A DNA stretch of 38,270 bases from Escherichia phage BUCT618: sequence record OM735461.1; one strand, written 5' to 3'. The notes beneath the pieces are model-generated. The model had not been told where the DNA came from. It searched no databases and was given only the letters and a program-made list of their open reading frames with translations. Both the position numbers and the translations under genes were made by a program. This document shows positions 2,390 through 38,258 of this stretch, one piece after another; the stretch's first letter is position 1; every line of letters begins with the position of its first letter.

Positions 2390-2999
2390 ACTTCCTTCTG
2401 AGCGCCTCAGTTACATCTGAGCCTTGTGGTGACATTGAACCGTCGCTTGAGATGTGGTTGACGGTTTCTTTGTATCCGCCAAGCATCTTGATGAGCATAT
2501 CCTGCGCCTTCTGCTGGTCTGCCATCTCGAACTTCGGACCCATCTTCGTGAAGGTGATGCCTTTGATGAGTCCGCGAATCTCTTCGGGTACTTCATCAGA
2601 TGACATCTTCACGACCGGCACAGCCATCTCACCAATCACCTCGCCGTCCTCGTTCACCATTGGGCGTTTCTCCCATCCGATGAACTGAGTCACGTCGGCA
2701 AACGCCTGAGCCTGGATGCGTGATGCAATTTCGTCAAGGCTCATGAGTTTTGACTTGGCAATAAGCCTGCGAGCCTCGCGGATGTATGGGCCGACTTTTG
2801 GATGGGTCAGCAATTTGCATCCAGCGACTACGGCAGACTTATATGCTACATCTTCGCCATAAGCATGGAGATACGCTCTCGTTGCGTTACCATTAGCAAT
2901 ATAATGATTAGCAAATGTTAAATGGTCTTTACTCAGTTGAGCCGCCATTTCCTCAAGCTCAGGCGTGAAGAAAGGCAGCTTATCGTCTGCCTCTGCCAT
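2373..2999 (-). CDS. terS: Terminase small subunit
   Basis: N-terminal HTH-like FANHYIANGNATRAYLHAYG typical of Terminase_2-type small subunits. SD AAGGAGG. Sits directly upstream of and overlapping terL. Confidence 0.8.
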   Translation of the reverse strand: MAEADDKLPFFTPELEEMAAQLSKDHLTFANHYIANGNATRAYLHAYGEDVAYKSAVVAGCKLLTHPKVGPYIREARRLIAKSKLMSLDEIASRIQAQAFADVTQFIGWEKRPMVNEDGEVIGEMAVPVVKMSSDEVPEEIRGLIKGITFTKMGPKFEMADQQKAQDMLIKMLGGYKETVNHISSDGSMSPQGSDVTEALRRKYGSRD

Positions 3000-3000
3000 G

Positions 3001-3201
3001 TCAATCCTCCTTCACCAGCACCAGTTTAAACCGTGAACGAGCGACTTTCTCGCCATAGTTATGGATGGCGCGCGGGTTTGGTGTATTAAAACTTTTACTG
3101 CGGCCCGGAGTAATGAATACATCCTCGCCATTAGCCGCAGCATCCATTGCTTCCTTCATGCCGTTACGGATAAAGTCACGCGGGGTAAATTGTTTCATCA
3201 T
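3001..3201 (-). CDS. Hypothetical small protein, first gene of the packaging operon
   Basis: 66-aa ORF. SD AAAGGA. Its stop lies 1 nt from the TerS ATG. Confidence 0.55.
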   Translation of the reverse strand: MMKQFTPRDFIRNGMKEAMDAAANGEDVFITPGRSKSFNTPNPRAIHNYGEKVARSRFKLVLVKED

Positions 3202-3224
3202 TAATCCTTTCCGTTGTTTCCCCT

Positions 3225-3253
3225 ATTATCGCCCCGCAATGAAACAGTGTCAA
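3225..3253 (-). promoter_or_regulatory. Sigma70-like promoter of the packaging operon (GGTTGACAC-N17-GATAAT)
   Basis: TTGACA at 3253..3248 and GATAAT at 3230..3225. The -35 box contains the TGA stop of the upstream gene. Confidence 0.6.
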
Positions 3254-3750
3254 CCTCGGTATGATTTGATTTCACTGCGCACCCAGTTGCGGGGGATGGA
3301 GAATGTACCCATCTTCTTGCCTGATTCGGATGCCTCTTTGCACTCCAGTCTTCCATCCTCTTCTCGATACCTTGCATTGTTTACCACCTCTTTCAGCCAG
3401 AAGTCGCCATTGACTTTATGGGTGAAGGTTCGCAGTCCATCTTCGGTTGTGACATCTACGGCCATTTCTACATTGCGCAGGATGTTCACGACAGTTCTCC
3501 AGTCACGGAAGCCGTACTTCTTAACCAGGTCTATAGCGGGGATCAGGTCCGGGTCGATTTTGGTGGCTGCTTCTATGAAAGCCTGCTTATCAACCTCGGC
3601 TGACTCCTTGCGTCCTTTAACTTCACTCCGAAGTGTCCGTACTTCTGACTTAACGGATTTAAGTTCAGTGGTGAGTGATTTTACCTGCTCAATCAGCTTT
3701 TCAACATGAAGGGCCAGGTTTGCGTAGTGCGGGGTTGGTTTGCGTTTCAT
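3250..3750 (-). CDS. Hypothetical protein with N-terminal coiled coil
   Basis: ORF track 3250..3774. Start preferred at the internal ATG 3750 because of SD AAGGAG (MKRKPTPHY..). Heptad-like LIEQVKSLTTELKSVKSEVRTLRSEV. Confidence 0.6.
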   Translation of the reverse strand: MKRKPTPHYANLALHVEKLIEQVKSLTTELKSVKSEVRTLRSEVKGRKESAEVDKQAFIEAATKIDPDLIPAIDLVKKYGFRDWRTVVNILRNVEMAVDVTTEDGLRTFTHKVNGDFWLKEVVNNARYREEDGRLECKEASESGKKMGTFSIPRNWVRSEIKSYRG

Positions 3751-35955: not shown

Positions 35956-36356
35956 ACGGAAAAATAGCACTTCGCGACATCATAAAAGCAATTGTTATTC
36001 TTAAACCTGGCGTTACGATGGCGGTAATTCAGCGGATGATATGGACAAAAACACCAAGCGCAACAATTGGGACGGCGCTGCACTGCATGTCAGCACAAGG
36101 GTTATTTACGACAAGGAGGGTTGAAAACAAAGGAAGGCGAGGATTCAAATGCAATGCCTACTATCCAACGAAGAAGCTACTGGACTCGTTCACGGTTACG
36201 AGCGAGATGCGGGAGTATCTTGGGCTGACGGATGGCGACCTTAACCCAGGGAAGGTGAAGCGCAAGTGCAACACTGTCTTTGAGTCATGTAAACAAAGCC
36301 CGGCAACGAAACGCATCCTTTGGTTTTATGGGCGCGGTGAATTGCCAGCCATCTGA
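35952..36356 (+). CDS. Hypothetical protein
   Basis: ATGA-coupled start at 35952 (track ORF extends upstream in frame). 134 aa. Confidence 0.55.
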   Translation: MNGKIALRDIIKAIVILKPGVTMAVIQRMIWTKTPSATIGTALHCMSAQGLFTTRRVENKGRRGFKCNAYYPTKKLLDSFTVTSEMREYLGLTDGDLNPGKVKRKCNTVFESCKQSPATKRILWFYGRGELPAI

Positions 36357-36395
36357 TTGGTTAAGCGAGGTTATGACGATTATGGAGAAGTTTCG

Positions 36396-38258
36396 ATGAT
36401 TACAAATGATGGTGTTAAGTTAATTCATGGTGATTGCCTGGAGGTGCTGAAGGGAATGCCAGACAATTCCGTGGATAGCATAGTCACAGACCCGCCTTAT
36501 GGACTTTCATTCATGGGGAAGAAATGGGACTACGAAGTTCCTGACCAGGCTATCTGGGAGGAATGCCTACGCGTCCTTAAGCCTGGTGGTCATCTGCTGG
36601 CCTTTGCTGGTACACGAACGCAGCACCGCATGGCTGTTCGCATTGAGGACGCTGGGTTCGAGATACGGGACATGATTGCATGGGTATATGGCAGCGGGTT
36701 TCCTAAAAGTGCGAACGTTTCAAAGCAGATAGACCAGCAAGAAAGAAACAGATGGGTTAAAATCATCAAGGCGATTGATAAAACAAACCTTTCTGAAATG
36801 GCTGAACTATGGATAAACTCAAGAAATGCGAATGCTGCGGGGCTTTCATTCCAAAGGAATCAAACCGAAGCTGGGCTCAATACGCAAAAAAACGGTTTTG
36901 CTCACGGAAGTGTTCTGCTTCAAGTCAGTCACAAAAACTGCGATGCGCTTGCAGTCATTGCGGAACTAAATTCGACCGAAGCCCATCCCACAAGCGAGGG
37001 GAATTGCAGTTCTGCACAATCGAATGCCGAAAGCACTATCACGGCATCGAAAAGCCATGCGACCACTGCGGAAAAATCACCAGAAAACCGCGAAGCAACG
37101 CTGTGCATGGTGGATTTTTCTGCTCTACACAGTGCATGGGGCTGGCAAGGCGAAAGCAGGGCGGACAAACTCAAGGCCGTCGAAGCCCTGAAGATTTGGC
37201 TTGGAAGAAAGCCATCCTCAAGGCGGGAGGCTACAAGTGCGCTATGTGCGGCACTGACAGACGACTTGAAGCGCATCACGTTAAGCCAATCAAAGACTTT
37301 CCTGAGCTACGACACGACACGTCAAATGGCTTGTGCGTCTGCCATCAGTGCCACTATTACGGAATCCACGGCGGCAAGCCTAATTTCATTCACGGCAGGT
37401 ACTCTAAAAAGTAAGGCCATCGACAAGGCGGCTGGTGCGGAGCGCGAGGTGGTCGGCAGCTACGAGGTGACTCGCGACATGTCTGGCGGATCATGGGCGG
37501 AACTTCACGGAAAACCGAACAGCGCCAAGATGCACAACATAACCGCACCAGCCACCGACGCCGCAAAACAGTGGCAAGGCTGGGGTACAGCCCTAAAGCC
37601 AGCACTTGAACCAATCACCGTAGCACGCAAGCCGTTCAAAGGCACTGTGGCGGCTAACGTGATGGAGTGGGGAACGGGGGCGCTGAATATTGATGGGTGC
37701 AGGGTGGTGGGGGATGTTTGGACTAGAAGAACACCTTATAAAGACAACATCAAAGGCGGACAGCTTCACGCCGCAAAAAGTGAATCAACCTACGCATGCG
37801 GCCCTCAATCTTGCAATGAATTGGGGCGCTGGCCCGCGAACCTGATTCACGACGGAAGCCATGAGGTGATGTCGGAGTTTCCTGCAAATGTTGTCGCGAA
37901 CGGAGGTAGCGGCGTATTTAACCAGCACGCATGGATGCGCTACGAGACGCCGCAGAACATCAATCGCAGCAAAGGCAGCGCAGCTCGCTTCTTCTACTGC
38001 GCTAAGGCCAGCAAGAAAGACCGAGGCGAAGGTAATAACCACCCTACCGTCAAGCCAACCGACCTCATGGCGTACCTTTGCCGCCTTGTAACGCCTCCTG
38101 GTGGCGTGGTTCTCGACCCGTTCATGGGCAGCGGTAGCACCGGCAAGGCAGCCGTGCGCGAAGGCTTCCGCTTCATCGGCATTGAAATGGACGCGGAGTA
38201 CCTTGCAATCGCTGAGGCGAGAATTGCGCATGATGCAGGGAAGCAGACTGAGAAATAA
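36396..38258 (+). CDS. Beta-class N6-adenine/N4-cytosine DNA methyltransferase carrying a 215-codon read-through insertion
   Basis: Motif IV SIVTDPPYGL near the N-terminus. Motif I VLDPFMGSGSTGKAA near the C-terminus. ATG 36396 with SD GGAGAAG (track ORF starts at an upstream TTG). The frame is open across 36768-37427. Confidence 0.8.
   Translation: MITNDGVKLIHGDCLEVLKGMPDNSVDSIVTDPPYGLSFMGKKWDYEVPDQAIWEECLRVLKPGGHLLAFAGTRTQHRMAVRIEDAGFEIRDMIAWVYGSGFPKSANVSKQIDQQERNRWVKIIKAIDKTNLSEMAELWINSRNANAAGLSFQRNQTEAGLNTQKNGFAHGSVLLQVSHKNCDALAVIAELNSTEAHPTSEGNCSSAQSNAESTITASKSHATTAEKSPENREATLCMVDFSALHSAWGWQGESRADKLKAVEALKIWLGRKPSSRREATSALCAALTDDLKRITLSQSKTFLSYDTTRQMACASAISATITESTAASLISFTAGTLKSKAIDKAAGAEREVVGSYEVTRDMSGGSWAELHGKPNSAKMHNITAPATDAAKQWQGWGTALKPALEPITVARKPFKGTVAANVMEWGTGALNIDGCRVVGDVWTRRTPYKDNIKGGQLHAAKSESTYACGPQSCNELGRWPANLIHDGSHEVMSEFPANVVANGGSGVFNQHAWMRYETPQNINRSKGSAARFFYCAKASKKDRGEGNNHPTVKPTDLMAYLCRLVTPPGGVVLDPFMGSGSTGKAAVREGFRFIGIEMDAEYLAIAEARIAHDAGKQTEK
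36768..37427 (+). mobile_element. In-frame HEG-bearing insertion in the methyltransferase gene, bounded by duplicated KAIDK codons
   Basis: aag gcg att gat aaa (36768-36782) versus aag gcc atc gac aag (37413-37427). Same peptide, four synonymous differences, spaced exactly 645 nt apart. Confidence 0.6.
36809..37414 (+). CDS. HNH endonuclease with three N-terminal zinc-ribbon repeats, nested in the +1 frame of the methyltransferase ORF
   Basis: Three repeats: CECCG..FCSRKC / CSHCG..FCTIEC / CDHCG..FCSTQC. HNH core YKCAMCGTDRRLEAHHVKPIKDFPELRHDTSNGLCVCHQCH. Confidence 0.8.
   Translation: MDKLKKCECCGAFIPKESNRSWAQYAKKRFCSRKCSASSQSQKLRCACSHCGTKFDRSPSHKRGELQFCTIECRKHYHGIEKPCDHCGKITRKPRSNAVHGGFFCSTQCMGLARRKQGGQTQGRRSPEDLAWKKAILKAGGYKCAMCGTDRRLEAHHVKPIKDFPELRHDTSNGLCVCHQCHYYGIHGGKPNFIHGRYSKK

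Follow-up and report, generated by a model that had tools for sequence, protein, structure and literature searches.

An HNH endonuclease gene nested out of frame within a DNA methyltransferase gene of Escherichia phage BUCT618

The methyltransferase locus and its insertion

The window analysed here is the whole 38,270-nt stretch of Escherichia phage BUCT618 (OM735461.1), whose coordinates are used throughout; related loci are named L001, L002 and so on, and all evidence on the BUCT618 cassette is computational. Its subject is a DNA methyltransferase (MTase) gene interrupted by a cassette that carries a complete HNH endonuclease gene in another reading frame, with the frame of the methylase open from end to end. 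The MTase, annotated as a site-specific DNA-methyltransferase in a phage of which a literature search found no mention, matches the Pfam family N6_N4_Mtase (3e-33, in two stretches) and has the layout of the beta class, with motif IV (DPPY) N-terminal, motif I (FMGSGSTG; FxGxG) C-terminal and the target-recognition region between them. Both the list of open reading frames (ORFs) and the sequence agree with the initial annotation that it runs for 620 codons from the ATG at 36396, between an N-terminal DPPY and a C-terminal FMGSGSTG; an alternative in-frame start, TTG, lies at 36357. The features of the locus are as follows.

36396..38258, + strand: ORF of the beta-class N6/N4 DNA methyltransferase, 620 codons from ATG, stop-free through the insert
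36396..36725, + strand: MTase part 5′ of the insertion point, from motif DPPY to GFPKSANVSK; 89% nucleotide identity to L026 up to 36707
36726..37415, + strand: insertion cassette, 690 nt or 230 codons, missing from L026
36726..36808, + strand: leader of the cassette, 83 nt, coding in the MTase frame only (QIDQQERNRWVKIIKAIDKTNLSEMAEL)
36775..36802, + strand: promoter-like element for the HNH gene, with −35 TTGATA (36775-36780), a 16-nt spacer, −10 AATGGC (36797-36802), then 6 nt and the ATG
36809..37414, + strand: HNH endonuclease gene, 201 residues, in frame +2 relative to the MTase; assigned by Pfam, PHROG, conserved columns and AlphaFold
37413..37427, + strand: native host codons for KAIDK (second copy), directly at the 3′ junction, in the target region GFPKSxDVSKAIDKAAGAERE
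37416..38258, + strand: MTase part 3′ of the insert, with the variable region followed by motifs HPTVKP and FMGSGSTG

The nested gene encodes a protein with three N-terminal Cys4 zinc ribbons and a C-terminal HNH core (CAMCG...EAHHVKP...NGLCVCHQCH). It exceeds the Pfam cut-offs for both HNH_2 (24.2 vs 21 bits) and HNH (22.0 vs 21.4 bits), matches PHROG HNH families (best 3e-11) and has intact homologues down to 47% identity in a protein search. Residues H156, H157, N173 and H182, together with the zinc ligands C144/C147/C178/C181, are near-invariant in 21 homologues. The AlphaFold model, built from only 21 sequences, has a mean predicted local distance difference test (pLDDT) score of 82.7, and its best match in the PDB is 5H0M, the HNH protein of phage GVE2 (Foldseek probability 1.00, TM-score normalised by target 0.65); the scores, the conserved His/Asn and Cys4 residues and this fold match identify the protein as a member of the HNH/His-Me finger group. 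A PDB sequence search with the same protein returned nothing but chance zinc-ribbon matches. The nested 201-residue zinc-ribbon HNH ORF had thus been recognised correctly by the initial annotation, which placed it in the +1 frame of the MTase; since its codons begin at the third base of MTase codons (36809-36396 = 413 = 3x137+2), the frame is actually +2, or equivalently −1.

The borders of the insert were set by comparison with L026, an insert-free syntenic relative (88-95% nucleotide identity). Contigs of this syntenic phage encode a 355-residue MTase homologue, P0046, whose gene in L026 lacks exactly 690 nt relative to BUCT618, so that the cassette is polymorphic for presence or absence at this site. 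The insert-free junction reads CCG AAA TCG ATG GAT GTA AGC AAG GCA ATT GAT AAG GCG (GFPKSMDV-SKAIDKAAGA), and the junctions of BUCT618 read GTT TCA AAG / CAG ATA GAC at the 5′ end and CTA AAA AGT AAG / GCC ATC GAC AAG at the 3′ end; the border is uncertain by 6 nt because Ser-Lys codons are present at both ends of the insert. The insertion point follows GFPKS, where the variable region begins. Its final four bases are TAAG and include the HNH stop, the TAA at 37412-37414 lying inside the AGT-AAG (Ser-Lys) codons as first described.

The pentapeptide KAIDK is indeed present twice (36768-36782 and 37413-37427), 645 nt apart and with four synonymous differences; from this pair the initial annotation derived an insert of 215 codons and a possible duplicated, disrupted homing site, neither of which survives the comparison with L026. 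The insert spans 690 nt or 230 codons (36726-37415), and the second KAIDK is native host sequence. The first copy lies within the leader, 14 codons from the 5′ junction and overlapping the promoter-like −35 hexamer, and for this reason is not a junction; a target-site duplication at the junctions is ruled out by the junction codons and by the promoter-like element of the leader. The proposed alignment of homologues bears out that insert-free alleles carry a single KAIDK: it is found once in L026 and L029, and occurs also in mycobacteriophages Murica and Taj, the target region GFPKSxDVSKAIDKAAGAERE being conserved even in mycobacteriophage MTases. A conserved target sequence is typical of homing sites.

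Both edges of the insertion show further variation. The 18 nt immediately 5′ of it (36708-36725; KS-ANVSK vs KS-MDVSK at 1291-1301 of L026) are far more diverged than the rest of the gene (89% identical) and could represent a co-conversion tract or a cleavage-resistant target variant. At the 3′ junction of many relatives (L001-L006, L009, L010 and others), the HNH frame reads past the position of the junction TAA and overruns by about 3 codons into the host exon (up to about 10 in a few loci), ending at a TGA formed by host ATT-GAY (Ile-Asp) codons with tails such as ...KKQGD; in such relatives the HNH gene therefore overlaps native MTase codons. Two candidate fusions were set aside as probable frameshift or assembly artefacts, both from contigs of about 1 kb: P0129 (339 residues), in which the MTase N-terminus is fused in frame to the HNH, and P0140 (292 residues), in which an insert-free MTase is joined to the last 30 HNH residues. 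It is possible that they are natural fusions.

Selection on the two overlapping frames

The comparison was extended to 25 loci from a scan of IMG/VR with an HNH alignment and three contigs of metagenome-assembled genomes (MAGs), giving with BUCT618 a set of 29 sense-oriented loci, about 24 of them distinct. In all of these the cassette occupies the same position of the MTase, and the MTase frame, which is frame +1 relative to the HNH gene, is stop-free across the entire HNH gene (29/29); the third, non-coding frame is closed by 9-31 stops. The open MTase span measures 460-850 codons in 25/25 IMG/VR loci, with the same behaviour in BUCT618 and the three MAG contigs.

Such openness is rare among sequences that encode the same HNH protein. 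Under random synonymous recoding with uniform codons, the MTase frame stayed open in 0.2% of the BUCT618 trials and in 0.005-0.9% of those for 22 homologues (mean 4-6.6 stops). Permutation of each gene's own synonymous codons, a conservative procedure because those codons are already biased, left it open in 2% of trials for BUCT618 and in 0.1-17% for the homologues. The synonymous-shuffle simulation suggested in the initial annotation thus finds open frames of this length to be rare rather than common and, with the 29/29 open loci, upholds its view that chance is an unlikely explanation. A natural control is provided by HNH homologues that lie antisense to the MTase (L032, L034, L118 and L119): they contain 4-8 stops in the equivalent frame, matching the shuffle expectation (4-6.6). 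In each HNH gene, about 10-15 Leu, Val or Ile codons are followed by a codon beginning with A or G, and no Met codon stands before one beginning with A; these are the contexts that need management if the host frame is to stay open. Taken together, these comparisons, which are of sequences throughout, show the open host frame to be maintained by selection.

A different explanation of the same observation is that the insert inactivated the MTase and that the openness of its frame dates from a recent insertion or reflects sequence composition, and is no product of selection. The methylase is probably dispensable, being an orphan MTase (and the MTase bearing the ShiLan insertion of mycobacteriophages, considered below, is missing from close relatives; PMC11855218), and for single genes the own-codon permutation gives a probability of openness of up to 0.17. 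This explanation is nonetheless very unlikely, given that openness holds down to 53% amino-acid identity of the HNH proteins and 45% differences at HNH third positions, and that the antisense homologues gained their 4-8 stops in the very same frame. In addition, the MTase flanks of insert-bearing alleles retain all motifs and, judging from their differences at codon positions 1/2/3 (0.30/0.22/0.61 on one side and 0.31/0.24/0.63 on the other), are under purifying selection; with the insert in place, the methylase would presumably be active.

The frame that is under selection as a protein within the overlap can be read from the distribution of differences (188 gap-free codons, 22 sequences, mean pairwise values). 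At HNH-frame codon positions 1/2/3 these amount to 0.284/0.243/0.450. Translated in the HNH frame, the overlap has an amino-acid identity of 0.645; the MTase frame, at 0.432, does no better than the non-coding third frame (0.429). When MTase codons are used instead, the differences peak at position 2 (0.439), the signature of the other, HNH frame. Between close pairs, synonymous and nonsynonymous codon changes are about equally frequent in the HNH frame, with ratios of 5:23 to 17:72 in the MTase frame. The leader, which codes for the MTase only, shows differences of 0.38/0.27/0.50 in the MTase frame across loci. These substitution patterns identify the HNH as the selected protein, intact across the family, and the passenger peptide as one that drifts yet must remain open.

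The passenger peptide itself has a high content of Ser, Thr and Ala (36%, against 21.5% elsewhere) and no Pfam or PHROG match, in keeping with the motif-less stretch described at the outset. In the AlphaFold model of the MTase the core is confident; the part encoded by the leader (residues 108-142) is helical with pLDDT 80-86, most of the stretch from residue 144 to 240 scores below 50, and long helices with pLDDT 72-90 are predicted for residues 260-347. The confidence of the helices at both ends of the segment (pLDDT 72-90), together with the abundance of long-form MTases in metagenomes, might suggest that the 230 codons form a true domain of the MTase, overprinted by an HNH ORF that is spurious or in decay. 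This reading is almost certainly wrong, since the data already contradict it: the pattern of substitution is that of the HNH frame; the HNH protein has near-invariant catalytic and zinc ligands in 21 homologues, Pfam and PHROG matches and a confident fold; most MTases of the family lack the segment, including that of a near-identical phage; and the same HNH occurs antisense in association with a split MTase.

Splicing, mobility and expression of the cassette

No Rfam intron family was found in the BUCT618 window at E<=10, nor in 20 related loci at gathering score, and there is no Intron_gpI match. Likewise, the full-length MTase contains no Pfam Hint/intein domain at E<=0.01, although the intein in the terminase large subunit (TerL) of the same phage was detected; both screens exclude known families only. 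The insert peptide starts with QIDQQE (or SKQID) and ends with GTLKSK, with neither intein blocks nor a C-terminal His-Asn, which agrees with the earlier observation that intein junction residues are absent.

Phage group I introns often contain HNH genes, and the insert could in principle be an unrecognised self-splicing intron, or another element excised at the RNA level, that carries the HNH ORF; it would then be missing from the mature mRNA, and the openness of the frame would be incidental or have another use. Within one clade, the 12 residues at the start of the insert are similar to the 12 that follow the 3′ junction (4-5/12 identical, null frequency 0.007), a resemblance of insert start and downstream sequence that has been noted as a possible intron signature (PMC11855218). 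As a general feature, however, this mimicry was rejected: it is significant in that clade only, and the 2/12 of BUCT618 is not. Furthermore, the 83 nt of the insert that the HNH ORF leaves over are not enough to hold a ribozyme core; substitutions in the leader are of a coding type when read in the MTase frame; and splicing would make needless a frame that is open in 29/29 loci where 4-6 stops are expected. With the negative Rfam searches, this makes excision of the RNA quite improbable.

Alternatively, an atypical intein or proteolysis might remove or cut the insert after translation, leaving an active MTase that is either spliced or made up of two fragments in association. Like inteins, the insertion lies in frame at a conserved site; the MTase of the antisense sibling form apparently persists as two ORFs split at the same site; and BUCT618 does have a true intein in TerL. 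Against this stand the lack of Hint/intein blocks, of a C-terminal His-Asn (the peptide ending in ...GTLKSK) and of any Pfam or PHROG match, and the fact that the peptide is conserved no further than the HNH frame imposes, whereas a splicing domain would be conserved; we regard processing of the protein as extremely unlikely. Also rejected was a fusion of the HNH to the MTase N-terminus through programmed −1 frameshifting, on account of a TGA two codons before the HNH ATG (36803-36805) and of a short upstream open stretch that is not conserved in relatives.

The TerL gene (20-2389, − strand, 789 residues) contains its intein at 923-1891 (323 residues), with junctions GFGG/CFPASQ...AVVSN/CIIIDDPHK; the intein is missing from the TerL of L026 (466 residues, GFGGAIIIDDPHK). 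Antisense to it, and codon-aligned in the antisense frame, lies an intact 223-residue NUMOD4 + HNH_3 endonuclease ORF (1001-1672, + strand), through which the TerL/intein frame is open. Together with the MTase cassette, BUCT618 therefore has two hidden HNH genes.

The distribution of the MTase cassette is patchy. A protein search recovered dozens of long-form MTases with the same segment (570-860 residues, 45-78% identical) and many short forms without it, and most of 80 sampled MTase loci are insert-free. The similarities of the HNH and of its host gene are incongruent: L013 and L014 share 92% identity in the HNH and 60% in the MTase N-terminus, BUCT618 and L003 81% in the HNH and 61% in the MTase, and BUCT618 and L008 63% in the HNH and 86% in the MTase, with a Spearman correlation across loci of only 0.39. 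The cassette is therefore mobile, having moved between diverged MTase genes.

Its fixation in many diverged lineages with an intact HNH, the physical coupling of HNH and MTase, and the marker exclusion exerted by phage homing endonucleases would also be compatible with a domesticated HNH that benefits the phage, for example by cutting insert-free competitors or by forming a restriction-modification-like pair with the methylase. Domestication is an unlikely account: the patchy distribution, with most family members insert-free, and the incongruent similarities fit a selfish element, and the promoter is degraded in the clade of BUCT618.

That promoter is best seen in the leaders of the relatives, where TTGACA-N16-TATAAT-N6-ATG is matched at >=10/12 positions in 13/22 loci and at 12/12 in five; the background frequency of a >=10/12 match at arbitrary positions is 0.001. 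The −35 hexamer is coded by the Leu-Asp-Asn codons of the KALDN/KAIDK peptide and reads TTGACA in most relatives, where the peptide is KALDN, and TTGATA in BUCT618; the Ile ATA codon of the −10 hexamer is retained in most loci, which argues for constraint at the DNA level. In BUCT618, L001 and L002, TTGATA is combined with a degraded −10 (AATGGC or AATAGC) for a total of 7-9/12, and a scan of BUCT618 36300-37500 for promoters and terminators found no site, the promoter signal coming from relatives only; expression of the HNH may be weak in BUCT618 and these two closest relatives. The HNH start is ATG in 22/22 loci and is preceded by no Shine-Dalgarno sequence in 19/22. Six nucleotides beyond the −10 hexamer is the usual start site of sigma-70 transcription, here the A of the ATG, and the placement of the promoter 6 nt before the ATG therefore predicts a leaderless HNH mRNA, and with it leaderless expression of the endonuclease.

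In summary, the locus probably represents a selfish HNH cassette in an orphan MTase gene whose host frame is read through and from which nothing is spliced. A 690-nt cassette would have inserted at GFPKSxDVSK/AIDKAAGAERE, between the catalytic motifs and the variable region; since its length is a multiple of three and the codon choice of the HNH keeps the methylase frame stop-free, the ribosome would read through it to make one 620-residue methylase. This would carry a 230-residue passenger, with helical ends and a poorly ordered middle, as a tolerated linker, and would undergo no splicing at the RNA or protein level. The HNH would be translated in the +2 frame from its own ATG and, in most family members, a near-consensus sigma-70 promoter in the leader would start transcription at the A of that ATG to give a leaderless mRNA. 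The HNH presumably cuts insert-free alleles, a specificity under which repair would copy the cassette in (homing); the presence/absence polymorphism and the incongruence between HNH and MTase are indirect grounds for regarding it as a presumed homing endonuclease. The initial annotation had proposed a homing-type HNH cassette carried as an unspliced in-frame peptide insertion, and the insert-free relative, the conserved open frame, the absence of intron and intein matches and the incongruent similarities all accord with that proposal.

Several points weigh against this account. As the loci were found via HNH similarity, decayed copies are under-sampled, and several of the 29 loci are near-duplicates. 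HNH third positions are less variable than those of the MTase flanks (0.45 vs 0.61), which may reflect an additional dual-coding constraint or a younger age, and the statement that there is no selection on the passenger peptide is of first order only; the helical ends of the passenger are fairly confident, so that part of the segment may be a real structural element of the modelled protein. In BUCT618 itself the promoter is poor (7/12), and no Shine-Dalgarno sequence precedes the HNH gene. Finally, RNA splicing by an unrecognised ribozyme, or processing of the protein, is possible.

Other arrangements of selfish genes were found in the same MTase family. The antisense HNH homologues occupy the same MTase site (L032 3001-3777, L034 522-1262, L118 1335-2108 and L119 1094-1843), are 53-59% identical and have one extra N-terminal zinc ribbon. 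In this form the MTase is divided into two ORFs with conserved extensions, the N part ending in ...VVWSxDHE and the C part starting with MSSVAxxIxIxVDG...; the site therefore tolerates full separation of the MTase halves. In three of the four (L032, L034 and L118), the reverse-complement frame 0 of the HNH gene runs for about 250 codons with no stop, although the MTase is read in a different frame; this may reflect mere avoidance of TTA, CTA and TCA codons. In L093 (~2585-3382), the host MTase frame is open through 266 inserted codons directly after DPPYGLS, which are codon-aligned antisense to a 267-residue ORF with zinc ribbons and a putative Vsr/DUF559-like motif (read by eye). The Mycobacteriales MAG contig L035 (2850-3560) lacks the GFPKS motif and the usual leader, its host frame is still open, and its HNH has no ATG and a possible GTG start (VEKVDCKYEICGG); this variant may be a rearranged or host-adapted copy. 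The MTase of Mycobacterium phage Taj (L031, gene 480-2153) carries near its N-terminus an in-frame LAGLIDADG-type insertion (LAGLIDGEGCF), corresponding to the 'lone LAGLIDADG' insertion described in PMC11855218. The N6_N4 MTase family is a hotspot for selfish insertions.

Comparison with known systems

To our knowledge, homing endonuclease genes have been thought to persist in host genes only via self-splicing introns, inteins or gene splitting. We lean towards the view that reading through an overlapping frame gives such genes, in addition to introns and inteins, a third and general means of residing in essential-looking host genes. A cassette of this kind would bring its own promoter and produce a leaderless HNH mRNA, the host protein would work with a 230-residue linker selected only for the absence of stops (and perhaps for helical ends), and the HNH lineage would switch between sense-nested and antisense, gene-splitting forms. 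For annotation, the locus is a warning that long 'methyltransferase' ORFs can conceal a complete second gene.

With inteins that contain a homing-endonuclease domain, the BUCT618 cassette shares the character of an in-frame selfish insertion at a conserved site, co-translated with the host and spread by homing; unlike them, it has no Hint blocks or terminal His-Asn, its endonuclease lies in another frame with its own start codon, and the mature protein presumably keeps the insert. Group I introns with HNH ORFs, such as those of I-HmuI of SPO1 and I-TevIII, are likewise HNH-driven mobile insertions in phage genes, but the BUCT618 cassette has no detectable ribozyme core, only 83 nt outside the ORF and a host frame that is conserved open. 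Introns normally carry in-frame stops.

Intronless homing is known for SegF and MobE in T-even phages, and the free-standing homing endonuclease MobE reportedly splits nrdA of Aeromonas phage Aeh1, as Friedrich et al. are said to have described in 2007. The cassette resembles this type in being an endonuclease gene without intron or intein inside a host gene, and its antisense sibling form (L032, L034, L118 and L119) splits the MTase in a similar way; it differs in that the host gene of BUCT618 is unsplit and read through in an overlapping frame. The GVE2 protein (5H0M) has the same predicted HNH core fold, Cys4 zinc site and HNH motif, at 22% identity; it consists of 92 residues and is terminase-associated, whereas the BUCT618 HNH adds three zinc ribbons and lies inside an MTase gene.

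The closest parallel is the 'ShiLan domain' of Arsenault, Gosselin and Gogarten (Genes 2025; PMC11855218), a 202-residue in-frame, stop-free insertion in mycobacteriophage methylases that hides an HNH in the third frame and in which no intron or intein signature was found; its authors speculate on leaderless translation, and all of the evidence is computational. An earlier related report is that of Gosselin et al. 2023 (PMC9957025), and a literature search found only two further papers and preprints on related out-of-frame endonucleases. The two elements reside in the same N6_N4 MTase family (the BUCT618 MTase is about 50% identical to those of Murica and Taj) and share an in-frame insertion of about 200-230 codons, a stop-free host frame, a disjunct distribution, the lack of intron or intein signatures and, for one clade of the family of the BUCT618 cassette, an insert start that resembles the sequence after the site. 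The BUCT618 cassette shows each of the features that mark this kind of element: it is missing from a close relative, introduces no stop in the host frame, has no intron or intein features, and is filled almost entirely by an intact alternative-frame HNH whose stop lies in its last bases. An observation on an environmental viral contig extends the range of the ShiLan type itself: L039 (~2300-2790) carries an out-of-frame (+2) HNH of that type at the ALKP site, with the host frame open, and the ShiLan-type element therefore also exists outside cultured actinophages.

The two elements differ in their sites, which lie after GFPKSxxVSK in BUCT618 and after WGTALKP in Murica, and in the domain order of their HNH proteins, with three N-terminal zinc ribbons and a C-terminal HNH in BUCT618 and a central HNH with flanking zinc fingers in ShiLan. 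They also differ at the start of the gene, which in BUCT618 follows an 83-nt leader with a sigma-70-like promoter and begins with ATG, and in ShiLan is a GTG 18 bp in. The BUCT618 element is found in a phage of E. coli and in many environmental contigs, and tblastn of its HNH against 50,697 phage records gave no mycobacteriophage match; by site, domain order and this search the two do not belong to the same lineage.

The 2025 ShiLan proposal concerned a few mycobacteriophages, with no selection test or explanation of HNH expression, and makes no mention of Escherichia or metagenomes (PMC11855218). To it the present case adds statistical evidence that selection holds the host frame open while letting the passenger peptide drift, an embedded sigma-70 promoter leading to a leaderless mRNA as a testable model of expression, and antisense, split-gene sibling forms. 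It further shows the solution to have arisen or spread with a different HNH at a second site, among many environmental phages and in one phage of E. coli. The E. coli phage offers a tractable host for testing splicing, methylase activity and homing and, if the reading is true, would be the first case open to E. coli genetics. The BUCT618 cassette is thus not a new kind of element but a separate lineage of a recently described one.

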